DNA of 55,451 bases from the IMG/VR virus record IMGVR_UViG_3300045988_024504, positions 1-55,451 of that record. One strand, given 5' to 3'. Shown here in pieces: positions 1 through 55,451 of the stretch; positions within the stretch are counted from its first letter, which is position 1, and every line of letters starts with the position of its first letter. The translations under genes were made by a program, and so were the position numbers. The notes under the pieces are model-generated. The model was not told the DNA's origin and did not search any database. It was given only the letters and a program-made list of their open reading frames with translations. The stretch comes from a virus.

Positions 1-99
1 CTCAATGCTTTACGTCTCGTGCGCTTTTGCTCGCACGAGACATCTCTTTTACATTGTGTGCAATATTTTTTGCGTGGGTTTACCCTACCCAAAAAAAAC
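1..99. repeat. Terminal direct repeat, copy 1 (identical to 55353..55451)
   Basis: All 99 nt are identical to the last 99 nt of the window. This implies a circular or terminally redundant unit of about 55,352 bp. Confidence 0.95.
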
Positions 100-672: not shown

Positions 673-891
673 TCAGTCCTCCTTCTGCTCGATTTCAAGA
701 ATCTTGCAGATGCTCTGGATAATCTTCTCCGGCTTTCGCTCGCCACGAAGAATCTTGTAGAGGTACGAATCATCAAGGAACAATCCAGTATCGCTTTGAA
801 CCGCCTGAATCAGCTCCGTTTGCTTCATACCTCGCTGCAACAGCTTCATCTTCACTTCCAGCTCAAAGCCAGAACGGAAGTTTTCTTTCAA
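673..891 (-). CDS. Cro-like XRE-family helix-turn-helix regulator, 72 aa
   Basis: The HTH-like segment is MKQTELIQAVQSDTGLFLDDSYLYKILRG. A TTG start follows GGAGGTGG. The gene is divergent from a second HTH gene across an operator-rich spacer. Confidence 0.7.
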   Translation of the reverse strand: MKENFRSGFELEVKMKLLQRGMKQTELIQAVQSDTGLFLDDSYLYKILRGERKPEKIIQSICKILEIEQKED

Positions 892-947: not shown

Positions 948-1050
948 AAGGGTGTAGAGAGTTTATATTGTACAGCGTTCTGTACTGCCTATGTCTGTAT
1001 TATAGTACAGACATCTGTACAAGTCAACTTTTTTGTACAAAATTCTGTGC
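926..1050. promoter_or_regulatory. Four 16-bp palindromic operators, consensus GTACAG-N4-CTGTAC
   Basis: O1 926..941 gtacggaaagctgtac. O2 970..985 gtacagcgttctgtac. O3 1005..1020 gtacagacatctgtac. O4 1035..1050 gtacaaaattctgtgc. Confidence 0.75.
999..1027 (-). promoter_or_regulatory. Sigma-70-type promoter (leftward, early operon): TTGACT-17-TATAAT
   Basis: On the minus strand the -35 is at 1022..1027 and the -10 at 999..1004. O3 occupies the spacer. Confidence 0.6.
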
Positions 1051-1061
1051 ATTTGTATACT
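1033..1061 (+). promoter_or_regulatory. Sigma-70-type promoter (proximal, rightward): TTGTAC-17-TATACT
   Basis: The -35 is at 1033..1038 and the -10 at 1056..1061. It overlaps O4 and sits back-to-back with the leftward promoter. Confidence 0.5.
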
Positions 1062-1084
1062 TGCACAAATATGGGAGCATTCTT

Positions 1085-1414
1085 ATGTCGGACTTGTACA
1101 GCAACATCCATGCACTCTGCGAAAAAGAGGGCATCAAAGACGGAACTCTTTGCAGCAAAATTGGGATTCGCCGCAGTTTTCTTTCTGAATTGAAAGCCGG
1201 AAGAACCAAAAGCCTGTCCACAGAGGTTCTTTCTAAGATTGCAGCTTATTTCAACGTATCGGTCGACTACCTTCTTACTGGCAACCAAAAAGAAAACCCG
1301 CTCCAGCAGCCGCAAAGTGAAGTCGATGCAGCAGTGGAGCGGATTAGAAGAAAACTTGAATCTATGCCGAAGGAACAGCGTGAAGCGCTGATGAACCTGA
1401 TCGAAAAGATGTAA
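1085..1414 (+). CDS. cI-like XRE-family HTH repressor, 109 aa, no peptidase domain
   Basis: MSDLYSNIHALCEKEGIKDGTLCSKIGIRRSFLSELKAGRTKSLSTEVLSKIAAYFNVSVDYLL is a classic XRE HTH. GGGAG lies 6 nt upstream of the ATG at 1085. The track start at 968 is rejected. Confidence 0.8.
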   Translation: MSDLYSNIHALCEKEGIKDGTLCSKIGIRRSFLSELKAGRTKSLSTEVLSKIAAYFNVSVDYLLTGNQKENPLQQPQSEVDAAVERIRRKLESMPKEQREALMNLIEKM

Positions 1415-3392: not shown

Positions 3393-4487
3393 ATGCCAGA
3401 ATTGACAGGGAACAACCTTGTCGAAAAGAGCAAGGCATTGGTTTGGGCGAAGTTTACGGACTACACAGCAGGCGAGCTTCGGCTGCTTGAGGTCTATCTG
3501 AGCCGTATCAATCCGAGAGACCCCGAAAGCTCTAACGTGTCGTTTACGCTGGCTGAATATTGCAAGCTGCTGGATTTGAAGCTAAATTCAAAGAACTTGA
3601 AGTCGCAGGTTAAGCACTTTTTGGGCAACGTGGTTTCAGTACCGCTGAATGCAGATGGAACAGAATATGTGATGTATCCGCTGTTCACAAAGGCAGAGGT
3701 CAAGTTCAATCGAGAATCCTTGTCCTATGACGTTTCAATCAACTGTAATCCTGACTTGCGGCCTGTGTTTTTCGACATTGCAAGAAGCGGCTACGTCAAA
3801 TACCGTCTGCGCTATACGATTGGGATGAAGCAGCAAGCATCTATTCTGATGTACAGCATGATTCGGGATTGGATGAATCGCTCTCTAACATCGAACAAGA
3901 TTGGTTTGAAGCAGCTGCGTGACCACTTGGGGGCAAACGATGCAAGTTATGACGACTTCCGGGCTTTACGCCGCAGAGTTCTTGAACCAGCAGTGGAAGA
4001 GATCAGCAATGTTTCAGACATTGTCGTTGACTTTGAGAAGATTTGCACAGGGCGAAAGGTCGTAGCGGTCGAGTTTCGATTCGGGTACAAATCCAAGCAG
4101 CCCGTCATAGATGCCGATTCTAGCGAGGTTGATTGTGAAGCGGATAATTCCAAGCCGGAAATCAAAAAAGCCACAAGAAAGCCCCGCACAAGCGGATACG
4201 AAGGGTACGACTGGTCTGTGTGCGATGCTCTATCCGTTCAAGAGTGCATCGCGGTTGCAAAGGTTGTCGAGGTAAAGATGATGGAAGAACACCCATCTAT
4301 CAAGCTGCCGAAGCGGAGAGATGCGGTCTATGATATCGTAAAGGCTGCGTGTGCGGATATTCTTTCAATCAACCGTGACCCTTGGCCTGACCATCCGAAG
4401 CGGTATCTGATTGGTAGCTTGAAGAAAGACGGCGCGATTGAAGAGTATCTTCCGGCATTTTATGAGATTGACGCACTGCAAAATTAA
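3393..4487 (+). CDS. Rep_3-like iteron-binding plasmid replication initiator, 364 aa
   Basis: The N-terminus NNLVEKSKALVWAKFTDYTAGELRLLEVYLSRI resembles the Rep_3 signature. GAGGTGA precedes the ATG. The gene is adjacent to the iteron array. Confidence 0.75.
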   Translation: MPELTGNNLVEKSKALVWAKFTDYTAGELRLLEVYLSRINPRDPESSNVSFTLAEYCKLLDLKLNSKNLKSQVKHFLGNVVSVPLNADGTEYVMYPLFTKAEVKFNRESLSYDVSINCNPDLRPVFFDIARSGYVKYRLRYTIGMKQQASILMYSMIRDWMNRSLTSNKIGLKQLRDHLGANDASYDDFRALRRRVLEPAVEEISNVSDIVVDFEKICTGRKVVAVEFRFGYKSKQPVIDADSSEVDCEADNSKPEIKKATRKPRTSGYEGYDWSVCDALSVQECIAVAKVVEVKMMEEHPSIKLPKRRDAVYDIVKAACADILSINRDPWPDHPKRYLIGSLKKDGAIEEYLPAFYEIDALQN

Positions 4488-4520
4488 TCAGACATAGAAA
4501 ATAAAAGAAAGAGTGATAAA

Positions 4521-5285
4521 ATGGCAAAAATCATAGCTGTCGCTAATCAGAAGGGCGGCACAGGAAAGACTACCACAAGCACCTGTCTGGCCGGTGCGTT
4601 GCAGTTGCTTGGCAAGAAAGTCCTGCTGGTGGACTGCGATGCCCAGTGTAATGCAACGGACACCTACGGTGCACAGACAGAGAACGTATGCACCCTGTTT
4701 GACGTGATGACCCGGCAAGGCACGGTCGAAGAAGGAATCCAGCACTGCGAAGCTGGTGACATTCTGCCGTCTGACAGCGCATTGAAGGACATTGACGAGC
4801 AGCTTGTCCGGGACATGGGCAAGAATTTCCGACTGCGAGAGGCCCTTGAGAGCGTGTCTAGTCAGTATGATTACATTGTGCTGGACACTCCCCCGCAGCT
4901 CGGTCTTGCGCTTGTGAACGCGCTGATCGCCGCCAACAGCATCATCGTGCCCATCACAGCAGACCGATACGCACTGGCTGGTCTGAGCCAGCTTTCTCAG
5001 ACTATCGGCGATGTTCGCAGATACTTCAATCCGACTTTGAAGATTGAAGGTCTGCTTCTGAACCAGTACAAAAGCAGGGAGAACCTGTCCAAAGAGGTCG
5101 TGGAGCAGCTTCCTGTGATTGCACAGAACATGGGCACAACCCTGCTGGATGTGAAGATTAGACCGTCTATGGGCGTTCGTAAGGCGCAGGCAGAACGGCA
5201 CAGCCTGTTTAGCGGTGACACGGCGAAGAGCACCAGTGCAGAGGACTTTAAGGCGTTGGCGCAGATGATTGCGGAGGGAAAATAA
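4521..5285 (+). CDS. parA: ParA/Soj-type partition ATPase, 254 aa
   Basis: It has the deviant Walker A KGGTGKTT and VLLVDCDAQ. The small ParA lacks an N-terminal HTH (type Ib-like). Confidence 0.93.
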   Translation: MAKIIAVANQKGGTGKTTTSTCLAGALQLLGKKVLLVDCDAQCNATDTYGAQTENVCTLFDVMTRQGTVEEGIQHCEAGDILPSDSALKDIDEQLVRDMGKNFRLREALESVSSQYDYIVLDTPPQLGLALVNALIAANSIIVPITADRYALAGLSQLSQTIGDVRRYFNPTLKIEGLLLNQYKSRENLSKEVVEQLPVIAQNMGTTLLDVKIRPSMGVRKAQAERHSLFSGDTAKSTSAEDFKALAQMIAEGK

Positions 5286-7353: not shown

Positions 7354-7444
7354 CTCCGAAAAAAGCTAGAGGATAGAACAGGCAGATATCGCCCATCGTT
7401 AGGAGATGTGGGAATTGTCGCCCCACCTAGCTTTTTCAATAGTA

Positions 7445-10734: not shown

Positions 10735-10808
10735 TAAAAAATCCCCCGCTTTGCCTATAAAGTACCCCGCGTGGAATGCAGGGCTTCGGCAAAGCAGGGG
10801 ATTTTTTT
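10735..10808. terminator. Long bidirectional hairpin terminator
   Basis: The arms aatcccccgctttgcc / ggcaaagcaggggatt match at 15 of 16 positions. An A-run lies on one flank and a T-run on the other. Confidence 0.55.
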
Positions 10809-11901: not shown

Positions 11902-13569
11902 TTAGGTCGTTGTCATGGACGCTACTGCGTCCTCAAAATTTTTAATTGCGATGTTCACGTCCCGCTGGTAGTCCAGCTTGATGCCTGCGCCGTCGCTCGC
12001 TTGCACCACGGTGTCGGGCGCGTAAGCGGTTTGGGCTTTGTATGCGGCAATTTCAGCAGGGGTGAGCGGAGTTTCTATGGGGGTGGCGAGAGCGTAATAG
12101 ATTTTGCCCAGCTGCTTTTTGCAAGACTCGTTGATCTGGCCAGAAATATCAGCCGCTTGCAGATATAGGAATTTTCCATTCGCGTTGTAAAACCACGATA
12201 AGTTGGTAAACGTACTAGCTGCGTATATTCTCTGTCCACCGACATACAAGGCGATTGGTAATCCTCTTGGCGCAAGATTGGCGTAGTTGCCAGCTTGTTC
12301 AAACTTAGTGTTTTCACCGTCAACATCAACCTTGTAAATCCTCTGCACCTTCACCCCTCTCTCCAAGTCCACCTCGTCGCACACCCACTGTTGGCCCGTG
12401 CTGTCGGTGTAGTTGCCGCCAGAGGTGACAGGGATGCCGGGCAAGCCGGTTGGGGTGGGAAGGGTGAGAGTTTGCGTTTTGCCTTTCCCATCGCTCAAGG
12501 TCACCGTCACGCTCCCGCCGTCACCTGCACTCACAATAGGCACAGGTGCATCTAGCGTGGGTGTGCCGTCCTGCGTGCTCTTACCGTACACGGTCAGGCC
12601 GCACAAGGGCGCAGGGAAAGCGTCGTCAACGGAGATAGGGTTGCCTGTTTCACTGCCTGTGAGGACGTTCTGCCGGGCCTTTACTGCGCTGATAGCGTCA
12701 CCTGTGGCTTTTGCGTCAGCGGCTTCGCCATCGTGGGTGAGGGAGGTGTCCAGTGCTACGGCAGGGCCTTGAGGCCCGGGTTGCAGCGTCAGGTTAAGCA
12801 CCGGATTTTCAGGCGTGCCGGTAATATCGGCGGAAGGTTTGTCTCCGCTGGACACCGTACCGATCGTCAGAACAGGCGTTGCACCGGTTTTGCCGGTTTG
12901 ACCATTTAAGACATCGATTGTTTTTGTACCGTCTTTGTCAGTGATGCTGACACGATGGCCATTTTCGATGTCAGTTACAGTCACAACTGGGGATTTACCG
13001 TCATTGCCGGGCTCGCCTTTGAAGTCACCGCTTGCAATGCCGTCCTTCAGCTCCTGCAGACTGTCAGCGGCTTCCTGAGCGCTCTGGTTGGCACTGCCCG
13101 CACTTGTGGCGGCTTCACTGGCCGCCGTCTGTGCATCGGTCTTAGCCTGCTCTGCGGCGGTGGCATCGGTGTGCACGGCATCTACCAGCTGCTGCCATGC
13201 AGGAGTGCCCGGTTCCGGCTCTGTGCCGTCCTCTGTGCCGGAGTTGGCGCTGACACGATACCGCAGATCTGCGCTGGTGACGGTCTTTGTGCCGTCGCTG
13301 CCTTCAAAGGTGATGCACCCGCTCCCGGGCTGTGCGGTCACGCTGGCGGGCACGTCCACATAGCCGTCCACCACCAGCGAGGATGCCGGGTCTTTGCCGT
13401 CCGGGACGTGCCAGAAGCAGCGGATAGCCAGCCCTTCCCACTCGCCGGTGGCAGTGACGGTAAGGCGGTACACGCCCCTGTTCTTGGTGTAGCCAAAGCG
13501 CACCAGCTGCTCATAGCCGGGCAACTTTGCCGTGCCGTTGGATGCGAGAGATACGCTTTGCTCGATCAT
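11902..13569 (-). CDS. Tail-fibre / receptor-binding-like protein, 555 aa
   Basis: It has a Gly-X-Y-like stretch (GEPGNDGKSP...GQTGKTGATP...QPGPQGP). The motif GEAADAKATGDAISAVKA is shared with the fibre at 15531..16421. Confidence 0.65.
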   Translation of the reverse strand: MIEQSVSLASNGTAKLPGYEQLVRFGYTKNRGVYRLTVTATGEWEGLAIRCFWHVPDGKDPASSLVVDGYVDVPASVTAQPGSGCITFEGSDGTKTVTSADLRYRVSANSGTEDGTEPEPGTPAWQQLVDAVHTDATAAEQAKTDAQTAASEAATSAGSANQSAQEAADSLQELKDGIASGDFKGEPGNDGKSPVVTVTDIENGHRVSITDKDGTKTIDVLNGQTGKTGATPVLTIGTVSSGDKPSADITGTPENPVLNLTLQPGPQGPAVALDTSLTHDGEAADAKATGDAISAVKARQNVLTGSETGNPISVDDAFPAPLCGLTVYGKSTQDGTPTLDAPVPIVSAGDGGSVTVTLSDGKGKTQTLTLPTPTGLPGIPVTSGGNYTDSTGQQWVCDEVDLERGVKVQRIYKVDVDGENTKFEQAGNYANLAPRGLPIALYVGGQRIYAASTFTNLSWFYNANGKFLYLQAADISGQINESCKKQLGKIYYALATPIETPLTPAEIAAYKAQTAYAPDTVVQASDGAGIKLDYQRDVNIAIKNFEDAVASMTTT

Positions 13570-28804: not shown

Positions 28805-29134
28805 TTACATATTGCCCACAAGTTCTTTGTAGCTAATCCCGCTAGTCAGACCGGGCGATTCTTCGCTATCCGTCCCAACGAAATGAGCATTTTTAACGCT
28901 CGGATGTAAATACTCAATCATTGCAAAATTAGCCACATCAATCAGCCATTCGGTATTCCCCGTTTCGAGATATTTTTGAATACGTGGTTGAATCTCCTTG
29001 ACAGCTTGCGCCAATTCCGGGTAAGTTTGGCTCATCCAGCCATACTTGTAATGAGAAACAAGGATTCGGTTTTGCATTTTCTTGACAAAATCGTCATCCC
29101 AATCCCTTGCAAGGATTTCATTGTTTGATTCCAT
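28805..29134 (-). CDS. Hypothetical helical protein, 109 aa (possible MazG/DUF550-like fold, low confidence)
   Basis: ORF-track frame inserted between the portal and scaffold genes. Confidence 0.5.
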   Translation of the reverse strand: MESNNEILARDWDDDFVKKMQNRILVSHYKYGWMSQTYPELAQAVKEIQPRIQKYLETGNTEWLIDVANFAMIEYLHPSVKNAHFVGTDSEESPGLTSGISYKELVGNM

Positions 29135-30641
29135 CGCTGTTCTCCGGGTTAGTATCGGTAGGCCGTTTGTCTGCTATATTCCCTGCATTTGTGTCGGTAA
29201 CATCCTGTTTAGACTGTTCCTGCGGCTTCGGTGCCTTTCCGTCCTCTCCCAGCTTGCCAGCGGCAATCAGGAAAGGCTTGCTCATTTCATAAGCAGCCTG
29301 CGGGTCGGGGAACAGACCGGGCGTGGTGAACGCCAACTGTGGGTCAATGGTCTGCTGCAACATCTGTGCAAAAATCTGAACCTTACTCTGCTGGTTGTCG
29401 TACTGACGGCGGGGCAATTTGATGTTGATGTCACTTGCCATCAGCTTAGAACCAGCCGTGCCACGCAGGATTTTCAGCATTACAGACAGGCTTTGGCGCT
29501 CAGCATATTTGAACATATTCTCGTACTGCTGCGCCCTCGCTTCGGTGTGATTCCATCCGTTACGGACGATGACTGCGCCCACGTTGTCGGACGTTGCGTT
29601 CTCGCTACCAGTGGCACTAGGCATGGCAGTCAGGCTGCGGTACACGTTCAACATGGAATCAAGAAGGGTCTGGCTCTGCTGCTGGTCAAGCTCATTTGCA
29701 AGCTGTGCGACCGAAGCTGGCTGACCGGAAGATGACTTTAGGCACATTGCGCCCATAGCCTTAACAGCTTTTAAGGCTTCTTCGTCCACAAGGCAGTTGG
29801 TAAACACCATGATGGACTGGATGAACTGCGCCACGCCGTCCAAACGGTTGCTTTCAAGGTCGTTGATGGCATCCAACACAGGAATAGCCGGTTCAAACAG
29901 ACCCATCCGCTCCGGGTTCAGCTTGTATTCGACCATCGGCAACATTCCGAGAGAATGGTTCTCCGATTTCGTAACCTTGCCGTTGTCGATTTCAAAGTAC
30001 TGGTTTGGCGTATACACGCAAATGAGGTCGTTCAAGTCGCTCTGATAATTGCGTGGGATATGCAGCACGTTGGCAATGGGCTTGTGACCAATGCCAGAGT
30101 TGTAAATCACATACGCCATATCTGGGTCGGGAACGTCCACCAGCAGGGGCGTTTCGTCCGGGTAGTTGCCGTTGTACCCCTTGTCAGGAAGAACAATGCG
30201 GTATCCCTGTCCGCACTCCAACATCCACTGCCAGAGCCGCCGATCAAGCGCATCCTTGCCCTCATACTGCAAGGCGTTTGACAGGCGGGCGATTTCCTCA
30301 CCGTCACCAGTTGCCGTTTCAGACCGCACATAAGAGCAAGGAGTGCCACTCATGTAGCCTGTGTAGAAGCCCACGCATTCATTGGCGTGGTTCTCTACAA
30401 TACGGTTGGTGATTTCAGCGTGGTATTCCTTAGTGCGGTGGAGGACAGGCTGGCTACCCAAGTAGTAGTTGTGCAGAAAGCGAATCTCGTTCTTGTTCAG
30501 CAGATGAATAGGCTCTGCCTTGCCCATGACCACTTTCAGCACGTTTGCCCGATTGATTTCCGTCTCCGGCGTTTCAATCGGTCTACGTCCGGTCAGCGGA
30601 TTATTCAAAAAGCCGTCAACGACTATCTGATACTCAGCCAT
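29118..30641 (-). CDS. Portal protein
   Basis: It is about 507 aa and lies downstream of terL. AAGGAGGA precedes the ATG at 30641. Confidence 0.85.
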   Translation of the reverse strand: MAEYQIVVDGFLNNPLTGRRPIETPETEINRANVLKVVMGKAEPIHLLNKNEIRFLHNYYLGSQPVLHRTKEYHAEITNRIVENHANECVGFYTGYMSGTPCSYVRSETATGDGEEIARLSNALQYEGKDALDRRLWQWMLECGQGYRIVLPDKGYNGNYPDETPLLVDVPDPDMAYVIYNSGIGHKPIANVLHIPRNYQSDLNDLICVYTPNQYFEIDNGKVTKSENHSLGMLPMVEYKLNPERMGLFEPAIPVLDAINDLESNRLDGVAQFIQSIMVFTNCLVDEEALKAVKAMGAMCLKSSSGQPASVAQLANELDQQQSQTLLDSMLNVYRSLTAMPSATGSENATSDNVGAVIVRNGWNHTEARAQQYENMFKYAERQSLSVMLKILRGTAGSKLMASDINIKLPRRQYDNQQSKVQIFAQMLQQTIDPQLAFTTPGLFPDPQAAYEMSKPFLIAAGKLGEDGKAPKPQEQSKQDVTDTNAGNIADKRPTDTNPENSDGIKQ

Positions 30642-30733
30642 GCGTTCCTCCTTTCCGGCAAAATAAAAAGCGCAGCAAGACAAACCTGTTAAGGTCTATC
30701 TCACTGCGCTTACAACTGCGCTTCAAAAGCTAT

Positions 30734-31088: not shown

Positions 31089-31166
31089 TGGTGCTACATA
31101 ATGGATTTGAACCAATGTATGCTCGGATATGAGCCGAGTGCTCTAACCATACTAAGCTAATGTAGC
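31089..31166 (-). tRNA. tRNA with anticodon CAT (Met, or Ile2 if lysidinylated), CCA encoded
   Basis: Hand-folded structure: acceptor gctacat/atgtagc, D arm gctt..gagc containing GG, anticodon stem ctcgg/ccgag with loop ctCATat, T loop ggTTCAAATcc, 3' ACCA. Confidence 0.85.
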
Positions 31167-31167
31167 A

Positions 31168-31514
31168 TAAAAACCCGGCTTGATTGGTTAACCGCTGCTC
31201 TTTGCAATGTCATGCCTAACCATTGCATCGAGAGCCGGGAATAGCAGTGGAGGTTTTGGAGAATAAATCCATGCAAAGCTAGGTAGTTGGTTGTGCTGCG
31301 TAACGAAATCGAACCGTTGCTTGCCAGCCATGGGGGAGACAGACTGGCATTCCCCAAACAATTGGAAACGCAACATATAAAGTCCGGTGAAGGTGAAAGA
31401 GTGAGAAAACCTCCACCGGTGAAAGGAGGAATATGCTTGTTGACACGCACGCGAGTAAAAATGACAAAACCCCGCGTGCAAGCTATTCCTTTAAGGGAAG
31501 CTGCAAAACTTCCT
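31168..31514 (-). ncRNA. Candidate structured non-coding RNA of unknown class (strand tentative)
   Basis: About 350 nt lack a credible ORF. A promoter lies upstream. Several 6-9-bp hairpins and an H-type pseudoknot (tgggg-aat-gccag-tctgtct-cccca-tgg-ctggc) are followed by a T-arm-like aacggTTCGATTtcgtt. Confidence 0.3.
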
Positions 31515-31520
31515 ACGTAC

Positions 31521-31550
31521 ATTATAAGCCTTGTCAAGTGGTGAAATCAA
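31521..31550 (-). promoter_or_regulatory. Promoter TTGATT-18-TATAAT facing the ncRNA/tRNA/portal side
   Basis: On the minus strand the -35 is at 31545..31550 and the -10 at 31521..31526. Confidence 0.5.
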
Positions 31551-31567
31551 ATAAATAGACCCAGCGA

Positions 31568-31583
31568 ACACAATATATTGTGT
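31568..31583. promoter_or_regulatory. Perfect 16-bp palindrome ACACAATATATTGTGT matching the NrdR-box consensus
   Basis: It matches every specified position of acaCwAtATaTwGtgt. It lies 6 nt after the terL stop and 17 nt upstream of the -35. Confidence 0.5.
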
Positions 31584-33569: not shown

Positions 33570-34802
33570 TTATTCTCCAGCTTTGAAATTGTAAATCGGC
33601 TTAATGTGTTTTACAATATCAACTGTTGGGGAGATTGCGTTGATAATTTCCTGCGCTGGCTTATATGCCATCGGGCATTCATCCAATGTGGATTCATCGG
33701 CTGACGTAGTATAAATTCCGTTCATTTGCTTTTGGTATTCCTCAACGCTGAATGCTTTTTTAGCCGCTGTTCTGCTATATAATCTGCCAGCACCATGCGG
33801 AGCAGAGAAATTCCAATCAGGATTGCCCTTGCCAACACAGATAAGGCTTCCGTCTCTCATATTAAGAGGAATAATCAGCTTCTCACCATCTCTAGCAGAT
33901 ACAGAGCCTTTTCGGATAATATCATCCGATTCATCAATATAGTTATGAACGGTTTCAAAGAAGGACGCATAGGTCAGCATAGAATTGATTCCAACACCAT
34001 CTAAAATAGTGTGCATAATTCTCGCTCTGTTCATCCTCGCAAAAGCCTGACAAATTCGCATATCATTAAGGTAAGAATCACGTTCTTCGCCTTCAAGATA
34101 GCAAAGCTCATTCGGAATATCAGGGAACTGAACATCCAATTCTTTGATTTTTTGCGAGATTTCCTGTTCACGGCCTTGCTCTTTCAGTTCTGCAATCAGA
34201 CGTTCCGTAGCTTCTTTTCTTTTGTTCTTTCCTTTAATATTTGAGATAGCTACGTTTTGATGATACTCTGCGACCTGCTTTCCAAGATTTCGGCTTCCAG
34301 TATGGATAACAAGGTACTGGTTTTTTTCTTTATCTTCGTCCAGCTCGATAAAATGATTGCCGCCGCCCAAAGTACCCATGCTGCGAAGAATCCAGTCAAT
34401 ATTATGTAGGCTATCTTTGCATTCAAGCTGGCTAAGGAAAGAATCCGACATTTTCTGCGATTCGTGAACATTCATTCCAGCCGGGACACGTTCTCTGATT
34501 ACTTTGTCTAACTTTTTTGGGTCGATGTGTTCAATTCCAAGTTCAGCGACAAGCATTCCGCAACCAATGTCCACGCCTACAATATTCGGAATGATTTTCT
34601 TGCCCAAGTTTGCCGTAAACCCAATTACGCACCCGGAACCAGCATGAACGTCTGGCATAATGCGAATTTTGCAGCCATCAACAAAGCTCTGATTGCAAAG
34701 CGTCAAAATCTGCTCAGACGCTTTGTCTTCAATATTGTCCGTGAACACCTTTGCGGACGCATATTTTCCATCAATCGTTTTCAATGTATTCTCCTTTCTC
34801 AT
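33570..34802 (-). CDS. rtcB: RtcB RNA 3'-phosphate/5'-OH ligase
   Basis: RIMPDVHAGSGCVIGF...GVDIGCGM...GGGNHFIE...HTGSRNLG...PHGAGR are the RtcB metal and GMP-histidine motifs. An alternative TTG start is at 34784. Confidence 0.9.
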   Translation of the reverse strand: MRKENTLKTIDGKYASAKVFTDNIEDKASEQILTLCNQSFVDGCKIRIMPDVHAGSGCVIGFTANLGKKIIPNIVGVDIGCGMLVAELGIEHIDPKKLDKVIRERVPAGMNVHESQKMSDSFLSQLECKDSLHNIDWILRSMGTLGGGNHFIELDEDKEKNQYLVIHTGSRNLGKQVAEYHQNVAISNIKGKNKRKEATERLIAELKEQGREQEISQKIKELDVQFPDIPNELCYLEGEERDSYLNDMRICQAFARMNRARIMHTILDGVGINSMLTYASFFETVHNYIDESDDIIRKGSVSARDGEKLIIPLNMRDGSLICVGKGNPDWNFSAPHGAGRLYSRTAAKKAFSVEEYQKQMNGIYTTSADESTLDECPMAYKPAQEIINAISPTVDIVKHIKPIYNFKAGE

Positions 34803-51617: not shown

Positions 51618-52269
51618 TTACCCCCATTGTTCGGACATAGCTTTTGCCACGCCCGGAAAAGTCTTTGCGCGATTCCTTGCACGGTCAGTGGTAAACATTC
51701 CCTTGTGCTGCTCACCATGCTTGTGCGAGTAAGACCCAGACGGGCACCATGTTGCGGTAGGTTCTACGATGTTTGTTGGGTGCAACGGCGGTACACCGCG
51801 CTCCCACAGTAACGTTTTCTTGCTGTACGGATGTCCGTACTCGTATGGCTGGATTGTCTGCGTAGGCTTTGGGTAATCAAAAATCTTGCTGGGGGTAGGA
51901 TTCTCAATCACCACTTTTTCGCAATCTGCCGCCCACACGGCAAGAAAAAGCGCCTTGCCGCACAATCCCTCATAATACCGGGAAAGATTGAGCTTTCCTC
52001 CCTTGTATAGGTGTCTTGCTCCCGCGTTGCTCGTCTTTGTGCAGGGGACAAATGCGATAATCATATCCCAGCGGGGCACATCATGCGCGATTCCGTCCAT
52101 GGTCACGACCTGCCCCCCCCTCAATAGCCTTTAGGCAGTCACCGAGAATATGCCATTCAGGATGCCCGCCGGACGGCTCAATCAGGTCGCAGGAATAGGT
52201 TTCGTGACCTTTTGCCCGGAACGCCTTACAGACCTCCTGTGATTCCTCACAGGCAACTAAAACTTTCAT
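51618..52269 (-). CDS. DNA cytosine-C5 methyltransferase-like protein, split by a G8 tract as read
   Basis: MKVLVACEESQ... is followed by a PC-motif region IIAFVPCTKTS and ENPTPS. ORFs 52081..52269 and 51618..52124 fuse if the tract 52113..52120 loses one G. Confidence 0.6.
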
Positions 52270-53902: not shown

Positions 53903-54097
53903 TCAGCCAGCCATCAGTTCTGCCAACTGTGCACGGAGGTCTTTCAACTCCGCTTCCCTGTCCTCGATTTCAGACCGCAAGTCCTCAATCTCAGCCAGCC
54001 GGTCAGCTTCTTTAGCTTCTGCTTCCTGCTCGCGGGTTAGGAAATACACGCCGTCCTTCGGCTCGTCCACGCCACCGAATCTGTCAAGGTTAATCAT
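53903..54097 (-). CDS. Coiled-coil protein, 64 aa
   Basis: ORF-track frame. Confidence 0.5.
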   Translation of the reverse strand: MINLDRFGGVDEPKDGVYFLTREQEAEAKEADRLAEIEDLRSEIEDREAELKDLRAQLAELMAG

Positions 54098-54284
54098 CTT
54101 TTAGTCTTCCTCTCTTACGTTCCTCTTTGATCTGCAGTGCGCTGTGCCACTGGTCTTTGTCGATTTCGATGGTAGACCACCGGTAGTTACATACAAGGCA
54201 CTTCTTGCGTCGAGTGATGCTATCGTGGTCAGACCGGCTGTCGACCGTTGTAATGTTGTTACTGCCGCACATCGGGCATTTCAT
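54090..54284 (-). CDS. NrdR-like zinc-ribbon-only protein, 64 aa (no ATP-cone)
   Basis: MKCPMCGSNNITTVDSRSDHDSITRRKKCLVCNYRWSTIE compares with the E. coli NrdR N-terminus [48 protein letters not shown] precedes the ATG. Confidence 0.65.
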   Translation of the reverse strand: MKCPMCGSNNITTVDSRSDHDSITRRKKCLVCNYRWSTIEIDKDQWHSALQIKEERKRGRLKDD

Positions 54285-54544
54285 CTTGCATCCCTCCACT
54301 TGTTGGTGTGAGCGGAAATGCGGTTCAACTTTCTCATCCGCTCGGTATCTTCATGCTCTTTTTCCGCGCTCACCCCAAGCGCGCACAAAACCAGAGCGGT
54401 TGCTAGTAACATCAGTGAAACAAATGCCCATCCAAGCATCTGTACTGTAGTCTCACAGCCATTTATTGTATCGCCACAGCTAACGGCTACGATTGCGGCG
54501 ACAATACCAAGTATGGTAAGCACGTTTCCTTTTACGGTTTTCAT
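54281..54544 (-). CDS. Membrane protein, 87 aa
   Basis: Two hydrophobic helices are present. Confidence 0.5.
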   Translation of the reverse strand: MKTVKGNVLTILGIVAAIVAVSCGDTINGCETTVQMLGWAFVSLMLLATALVLCALGVSAEKEHEDTERMRKLNRISAHTNKWRDAR

Positions 54545-55067: not shown

Positions 55068-55444
55068 TCATAAGTCAGTTCCCCTGTCGCAAGCATCCTC
55101 GACACTTCGCCGTAATGCTTGCCCATCTTATCTGCAAGAGCTTGAACCTGACCTATGGATGGAATCTTTTTTTCTTCCAGTGCTTTCTCGTTTAAGGCTC
55201 GTTCTCTTCGTATGCTCTGATGTTCCGCAATACTTGCAAAGGCTGCATCTTTCGCGCAATCTTTGTGGTACTTTTGTGCCGCAGACATTTTAATCAGTGG
55301 CTTACCGCACCATTGGCACACGATTTTTACTGGAGTGAACCCACGTCCTGAACTCAATGCTTTACGTCTCGTGCGCTTTTGCTCGCACGAGACATCTCTT
55401 TTACATTGTGTGCAATATTTTTTGCGTGGGTTTACCCTACCCAA
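55061..55444 (-). CDS. Zn-ribbon protein, 127 aa, whose 5' end lies in the terminal repeat
   Basis: CTQC...CQWC. A TTG start follows GGAG. The first 92 nt are duplicated at 1..92. Confidence 0.55.
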   Translation of the reverse strand: MGRVNPRKKYCTQCKRDVSCEQKRTRRKALSSGRGFTPVKIVCQWCGKPLIKMSAAQKYHKDCAKDAAFASIAEHQSIRRERALNEKALEEKKIPSIGQVQALADKMGKHYGEVSRMLATGELTYEW

Positions 55445-55451
55445 AAAAAAC
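55353..55451. repeat. Terminal direct repeat, copy 2
   Basis: Identical to 1..99. Confidence 0.95.

Follow-up and report, generated by a model that had tools for sequence, protein, structure and literature searches.

A stand-alone NrdR-type zinc ribbon in a human-gut phage and its linkage to a cassette carrying a single NrdR box

NrdR is among the most widespread bacterial repressors, and it has been studied only as a two-domain, two-box nucleotide sensor. A short ORF in the phage DNA analysed here encodes the DNA-binding half of such a protein by itself, which raises the question of what a phage would do with an NrdR ribbon that lacks the sensor. It had been proposed, in an earlier note made by reading this DNA, that the ribbon would rewire the control of the host ribonucleotide reductase (RNR), and so dNTP supply, during infection. 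The window, that is the whole stretch of 55,451 nt that was analysed (IMG/VR record IMGVR_UViG_3300045988_024504), contains the following elements around the ribbon gene and at the head of its operon:

54090..54284, minus strand: stand-alone NrdR-type zinc ribbon, allele A, 64 aa (ORF, profile and fold evidence)
54292..54297, minus strand: ribosome-binding site GGAGGG, read from the sequence, 7 nt before the ribbon ATG
54281..54544, minus strand: predicted membrane protein of 87 aa, upstream of the ribbon gene
53903..54097, minus strand: acidic coiled-coil ORF of 64 aa, downstream of the ribbon gene and translationally coupled to it through an 8-nt overlap
673..891, minus strand: Cro-like regulator, heading a leftward early operon that crosses the circular junction to the ribbon gene
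968..1414, plus strand: CI-like HTH gene, divergent from the Cro-like gene

The ribbon gene and its genome

The ribbon ORF starts with an ATG (54284..54282) that overlaps the stop codon of the preceding 87-aa ORF (ATGA), ends with a TAA (54092..54090) and shares its final 8 nt with the start of the next ORF; such overlaps at both ends are typical of operon coupling. The 64-aa ORF is real, with exactly the translation quoted in the earlier note, which had omitted that it lies on the minus strand. Across 82 distinct nucleotide alleles from related phages, the gene has a dN/dS of 0.07, indicating a real protein gene under strong purifying selection. A piece of a frameshifted full-length nrdR was also considered and rejected, because the relatives share both the stop position and a conserved tail, and the next ORF encodes a coiled coil and not an ATP-cone. 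The acidic coiled-coil product of this next ORF (53903..54097) is a possible partner of the ribbon protein.

The encoded protein follows the pattern CX2CX22CX2C; three strands are followed by a helix (residues 43-58), and the tail is basic and disordered. It belongs to PF22811 (Zn_ribbon_NrdR), which matches residues 1-40 over positions 1-42 of its 42 with 50.2 bits (gathering score 27.2; E=2.4e-13). When PDB sequences were searched with phmmer, only NrdR chains matched (E~1e-5), and this search reproduced the alignment to the N-terminal zinc ribbon of NrdR that had been drawn earlier by eye. The AlphaFold model (pLDDT 86.9) agrees with this assignment, its 13 best PDB matches being NrdR ribbons (rmsd 0.9-1.8 Å, 40-46% identity).

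The absence of the ATP-cone, also claimed from the letters alone, holds as well: the significant profile match to the NrdR ribbon is accompanied by none to the cone model PF03477, which stays silent even at E<=10, and the protein terminates 22 residues past the ribbon domain. With TIGR00244, the model of full-length NrdR, the score is 36.9 bits (cutoff 124.65) and the alignment covers positions 1-57 of 147 only, and all close homologue clusters (44/44) are likewise ~64 aa long with PF22811 as sole domain. Judged by its features the ORF is not an NrdR: the cone, the paired boxes and an nrd target are all lacking. Other ribbon families match more weakly. The Lar profiles remain below cutoff (PF14354, 15.9 bits against 28.6; TIGR03655, 20.1 against 39.6), FdhE and other ribbons appear among the weak sub-threshold matches, and the TFIIS ribbon PF01096 scores 25.6 bits against a cutoff of 21, which is above cutoff but far weaker than NrdR, and is accompanied by weak fold matches.

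The tail IDKDQWxSALQIKEERKRGRPKDD is conserved among close relatives of the protein. The majority of them end in KRGRPKDD, with an AT-hook-like core, and the window protein ends in KRGRLKDD (residues 57-64; 54090..54110). An AT-hook consists of an R-G-R-P core with basic flanks; the window protein lacks this core, having RGRL at this place, in a tail that is disordered in the model.

The first 99 bp of the window (1..99) are exactly those of its end (55353..55451) and related contigs bridge the two ends, indicating a complete circular genome of ~55.35 kb. A Rep3 initiator and a ParA are encoded in 3393..5285 (ParA at 4521..5285), in addition to CI-like HTH regulators, and the window is probably a phage-plasmid. 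Head, tail and lysis genes were read by eye from the translations, and a tRNA-Met(CAT) is also encoded. Neither an integrase nor an RNR gene was recognised on reading the translated ORFs, the profile scans covering the ribbon neighbours and the left 11 kb. The ribbon gene is approximately the seventh of the leftward early operon, directly before recombination and replication genes (an AAA_24 ATPase and others). The lineage is very abundant in the human gut, and IMG/VR contains hundreds of its contigs, 55-60 kb long. Among 185,579 species genomes none has the ribbon protein, and the terminase is only 62-67% identical to those of two metagenome-assembled genomes, one from Bacillota and the other from Bacteroidales.

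Several other elements of this genome deserve mention in their own right. A DNA methyltransferase appears to be split into two ORFs of 62 and 168 aa (51618..52269, minus strand) and is a frameshift or a pseudogene, the relative L161 having an intact version of 379 aa (11913..13052). Two Rfam families, both well over their gathering scores, are found in the plasmid-like part: a skipping-rope RNA (7362..7434, plus strand) and a DUF3800-VIII RNA (10740..10803, minus strand). A 410-aa ORF adjoining the terminase genes (33570..34802, minus strand) resembles by eye an RtcB RNA ligase (GGGNHF motif) and, together with the phage tRNA-Met, might counter host defences that cleave tRNAs. Finally, PDB entry 9a6n is an integrative model of a complex between Soj (ParA) and NrdR, and the phage-plasmid encodes a ParA of its own; a literature search on the Soj-NrdR link gave nothing relevant.

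Predicted DNA-reading residues, the box and its putative promoter

In S. coelicolor NrdR, a pair of ribbons sits on each box and kinks it by ~90 degrees at its AT centre, D15 and R17 read the conserved C4 and G13 of the box, and arginines 12, 26-29 and 37 grip the DNA backbone (PMC9110341). In E. coli NrdR, the ribbon pairs behave as rigid units, held together by strand 39-45 and by salt bridges among R27, R29 and E42 (PMC12176259). The phage ribbon retains the box-reading residues D15 and R17, as well as R25, R26 and K27 (corresponding to NrdR R27-R29), R35 (R37) and E40 (E42), so the ribbon-dimer residues R25, K27 and E40 stand for E. coli R27, R29 and E42. Where NrdR has the phosphate contacts R12 and R26, the phage protein has T12 and T24. 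In 38 distant stand-alone homologues, D15 is present in 30, R17 in 33, R35 in 32 and E40 in all 38, suggesting that the family is built to dimerise and to read NrdR-like DNA. Dimerisation of the phage ribbon, its binding to a box and its effect on transcription are predictions.

A candidate target for such a dimer lies 22 kb away, beside the terminase gene, where the following elements are found:

31568..31583, no strand: single perfect NrdR-box palindrome ACACAATATATTGTGT, beginning 6 nt after the terminase stop codon
31521..31550, minus strand: promoter-like site TTGATT-18-TATAAT, with hexamers conserved across divergent cassette types
31089..31514, minus strand: predicted transcript of the box-associated promoter, a ~350-nt leader followed by tRNA-Met(CAT)
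31316..31583, minus strand: exchangeable cassette of ~265 bp (box, promoter and 5' part of the leader), with at least four types (A-D) in relatives

NrdR boxes have one common consensus across bacteria. The site at 31568..31583, to which the earlier note had pointed, is both a perfect palindrome and a perfect match to this consensus, with all six conserved positions (C4, A6, A8, T9, T11 and G13). Such a perfect consensus is expected by chance 6e-5 times in the genome and was observed once. No second box was found within 3 mismatches in the whole genome, and no paired boxes; a search for an autoregulatory site gave no box within 10 kb of the ribbon gene, either in the window or in 80 related loci. 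The box is placed 17 nt upstream of TTGATT-18-TATAAT, its centre at about -61.5 from the predicted start (~31514), and therefore stands upstream of the -35 element without overlapping the promoter. The leader (31167..31514, minus strand, ~350 nt) folds better than shuffled sequences (z=-3.7) and has an initial hairpin that is conserved across cassette types, and it matches no Rfam family. Downstream of tRNA-Met there is a 62-aa Cys-rich ORF and then a 521-aa ORF (29118..30683) that, read by eye, is a putative portal gene.

Full-length NrdR requires a pair of boxes spaced by 15-16 bp, and an isolated single box is not bound by the E. coli protein (PMC13584703), so that a lone box suits a ribbon dimer better than it suits host NrdR. 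This bears on the idea that the box is a site for host NrdR, making the phage promoter responsive to dATP/ATP, with the phage ribbon competing for it as an anti-repressor. The box is indeed a perfect consensus of the host type, and competition would also predict the linkage between allele A and box A described below. Nevertheless, the second box demanded by the full-length protein is absent, and the position upstream of the -35 element leaves the promoter uncovered, which makes this arrangement quite improbable.

Boxes of the same kind are found elsewhere in the lineage. Of 80 relatives, 35 have an additional lone NrdR-like box, located upstream of the terminase at a distance of 2-4 kb, which in two of five box variants shares the box A flank AAATAGACCCAnCGAA. 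This extra box lies in the control region of antirepressor genes that belong to three families (AntA/ORF6C, Bro-N/KilAC and Rha/KilAC), and it is absent from the window. The antirepressor-associated boxes are located as follows:

L085, 2078..2093
L092, 1743..1758
L089, 1409..1424
L141, 1629..1644
about 30 other related loci

A few allele-B phages (L101/L228, L233) also have an NrdR-like box before an antirepressor gene, so that these boxes are not exclusive to allele A, which argues against a strict rule of one allele, one box.

Covariation of ribbon alleles and cassettes

The same gene slot is occupied in related phages (locus L164) by a second ribbon, allele B, which is 81 aa long and in which position 15 is H or R, position 17 is T and position 35 is mostly T or A, so all three DNA-contact positions are changed. 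The region of the box varies too. The cassettes follow a near-identical terminase gene, and homology between types ends precisely at the outer border of the box, to return ~265 bp further on. The palindrome is present in cassette A only; a symmetric operator was sought in cassettes B, C and D and none was found. Cassette D, which is boxless, has a near-consensus promoter with an extended -10 element (TTGACT-17-TG-TATAAT).

The two loci covary completely. Among contigs typed at both, those with ribbon allele A carry box A in 26 cases and site B in none, and those with allele B carry box A in none and site B in 28, a linkage across 22 kb of 26/0 vs 0/28 (Fisher 5e-16) in which one of the 28 allele-B/site-B contigs was typed from its length and the contigs are non-independent samples. 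Three other alleles (P0045, P0046/P0047), used as queries, brought up allele-A contigs only, and 11 contigs with cassettes C or D fall in neither allele list. Two observations indicate that this linkage is not simply lineage structure. The terminase DNA beside the box does not separate the types, its divergence being 7.7% for A-A, 8.8% for A-B and 8.1% for B-B pairs, and the sequence closest to a B is often an A. In addition, free assortment with the ribbon allele is seen for the recombination module, even though the ribbon gene is only 0.1-1 kb away from it: allele A occurs with AAA_24 in 26 cases and with ERF in 30, allele B in 10 and 20 respectively (p=0.26). In so mosaic a population, complete linkage over 22 kb speaks for a functional connection of the ribbon mini-module with the box cassette. 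Both partners are wider than the ribbon and its palindrome: the covarying unit at one end is the ~265-bp cassette and not the 16 bp alone, and at the other the acidic 64-aa ORF accompanies allele A in 56/56 loci, a 51-aa ORF takes its place in 30/30 allele-B loci, and the allele of the upstream membrane protein travels with that of the ribbon. The linkage could therefore be due to the cassette promoter, to the leader RNA or to one of the two small co-travelling genes instead of the ribbon-box pair. Since site B is not a clear palindrome, allele B is left with no convincing operator.

The interpretation towards which we lean, with moderate confidence, is that the ribbon is a nucleotide-blind, dimeric transcription factor of the phage with a single-box operator of its own. 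The protein would be made from the early lytic operon, just ahead of the recombination and replication genes. Its third strands would pair two ribbons as in NrdR, and the dimer would read the 16-bp palindrome through D15 and R17 and kink its AT-rich centre. Because the ATP-cone is missing, it would sense neither ATP nor dATP, nor would it assemble into the tetramer to which bacterial NrdR owes its two-box requirement. The phage box at 31568..31583 would be its main target, ~61.5 bp upstream of a weak promoter that may drive the structured leader, tRNA-Met and downstream genes (head genes, as read by eye); a further target could be the similar lone box that fronts antirepressor genes in many relatives. 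The ribbon most likely activates transcription, as suggested by a box that lies upstream of the promoter, by a weak -35 element with an 18-nt spacer, by the near-consensus promoter of the boxless cassette D and by the analogy with P2 Ogr, the sign of the effect being the least certain step.

The proposal from which this analysis started is instead that the ribbon acts on the host, either occupying the paired nrd boxes constitutively or pairing with the ribbon of host NrdR and so breaking the repressor tetramer, with changes in RNR expression and dNTP supply. It draws on the conservation of D15, R17 and the ribbon-dimer residues, on the box consensus that bacteria share, on the early position of the gene beside replication and recombination genes, and on a distant homologue (L165) directly before genes for dCMP deaminase, DNA polymerase A and thymidylate synthase. 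As stated, it was not borne out: the complete linkage of the ribbon allele is to a phage cassette and to nothing in the host, and, with RNR constitutively repressed, a replicating phage in which no RNR gene was recognised would be starved. Moreover, allele B has lost the NrdR reading residues in the same slot, so that the conserved job of this slot cannot be the recognition of host NrdR boxes. Action on the host as the role of the ribbon is therefore considered unlikely; it could coexist with the phage-operator role for allele A, and a secondary cross-talk of the box-reading allele with host NrdR boxes, or with the ribbon of host NrdR, is possible.

A third explanation takes the protein for a generic zinc ribbon, involved in protein binding, RNA binding or a Lar-like alleviation of restriction, and the palindrome for an unrelated element such as a recombination junction. 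The weak sub-threshold matches to Lar and FdhE and the above-cutoff TFIIS score fit this explanation, and so does the break in homology between cassette types, which falls precisely at the palindrome. It is very unlikely, given that the NrdR profile scores far above any other, that the DNA-contact residues specific to NrdR are kept across the family, that a perfect consensus has so small a chance expectation and that reading residues and box are lost together.

The dimeric phage factor favoured here concerns one lineage, and the generality of the ribbon-box pairing is unproven. In two other lineages (L165, L166) no box was found at distances of up to 10 kb from the ribbon gene, nor was there one in the first 50 kb of cyanophage S-CRES1, which carries an RNR gene; since the box is 22 kb from the gene in the window, box-less flanks of 10 kb do not decide the matter. 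A wider proposition, considered less likely than not, is that sensor-less ribbons form a large and unstudied class among phage transcription factors, in which every allele has a matching single-site operator, and that the alleles with D15 and R17 also recognise host NrdR boxes. If this were true, a phage could couple the control of its own promoter to the host RNR regulon, or override that regulon, without a nucleotide signal, and binding of box-reading alleles to host nrd promoters would be a new phage route to the control of dNTP supply. A sensor-less ribbon with a single perfect box, set against an altered allele without box, constitutes a natural experiment that makes testable how a ribbon alone reads DNA, what determines its specificity and whether phages exploit the NrdR box code.

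Comparison with known systems

Proteins of this kind have been catalogued and their function has not. The rarity implied by describing the ORF as a truncated phage NrdR did not survive an exhaustive profile search, which gave 4,925 clusters (50% identity) at E<=1e-3 with names assigned automatically in UniProt and JGI; the best 150 of these 4,925 clusters are mostly 50-130 aa long, too short for an ATP-cone. A structure search of viral proteins also returned many stand-alone ribbons auto-named 'NrdR-like N-terminal domain-containing protein'. The 64-aa protein A0A8S5VH50 ('Transcriptional regulator NrdR'), from a human-gut virome, is 91% identical to the window ribbon and essentially the same protein, and the uncharacterised viral 'NrdR' proteins of UniProt, JGI and PHROG 10675 belong to the same family under automatic names. 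K07738 nrdR has been listed among phage-borne 'sporulation genes' in a survey of gut phages (PMC10294663). Names such as 'Transcriptional regulator NrdR' and counts of 'sporulation genes' are thus misleading for thousands of viral proteins, and no study of the function, the target or the missing sensor of stand-alone ribbons was found in the literature searched. Two further architectures were observed in this family. In an unrelated phage (L165, 10001..14535), a stand-alone ribbon of 106 aa is followed directly by the dCMP deaminase, DNA polymerase A and thymidylate synthase genes mentioned above, and the homologues P0048, P0052, P0071 and P0081 have two tandem NrdR ribbons, followed in three of them by a region that by eye resembles an ATP-cone, an unusual NrdR architecture.

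The C-terminal ribbons of TFIIS, RPA12 and TFS (PF01096) have the same three-stranded zinc beta-ribbon as the phage protein. TFIIS-type ribbons enter the active site of RNA polymerase with an acidic hairpin, which is absent from the phage ribbon.

A classical functional parallel may be offered by P2 Ogr, a zinc-finger activator with the pattern CX2CX22CX4C, whose late promoters carry the dyad TGT-N12-ACA (PMC3931495). Ogr, P4 Delta and 186 B (PF04606) are phage proteins of ~70 aa with four cysteines at nearly the same spacing as the ribbon and with dyad sites at promoters of their own phage. The sequence used as the query, which we take to be that of P2 Ogr, matches PF04606 at E=1e-21, and with this presumed sequence the second-best Pfam match is the NrdR ribbon PF22811 (E=0.007) and hhalign against the ribbon family gives E=1e-4 and a probability of 57% over 40 columns, a remote similarity that extends over the full length. 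The phage ribbon is not a member of PF04606, which is not among its Pfam matches at E<=10. It also differs from Ogr in the sequence of its site, in being an early gene and in belonging to a phage-plasmid, probably of Bacillota, and not to a P2-like phage; Ogr is an activator, whereas activation by the phage ribbon is suggested by the layout of the promoter.

Among the closest known systems is NrdR itself (TIGR00244, K07738; PDB 7p37, 7p3f, 9fxk, 9gex), with which the phage ribbon shares the fold at ~40% identity, the two CxxC pairs, D15 and R17, the arginine cluster and the ribbon-pairing strand with its salt-bridge residues, in a genome that contains a perfect 16-bp NrdR box. The differences are as follows. 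There is no cone, and hence neither nucleotide sensing nor a cone-mediated tetramer, octamer or dodecamer; the phage has one box where NrdR uses two separated by 15-16 bp; this box is upstream of the -35 element with no overlap of the promoter, and the genes nearby are not nrd genes; and the protein has a 2-residue deletion in the first hairpin, together with an added helix and a basic tail.
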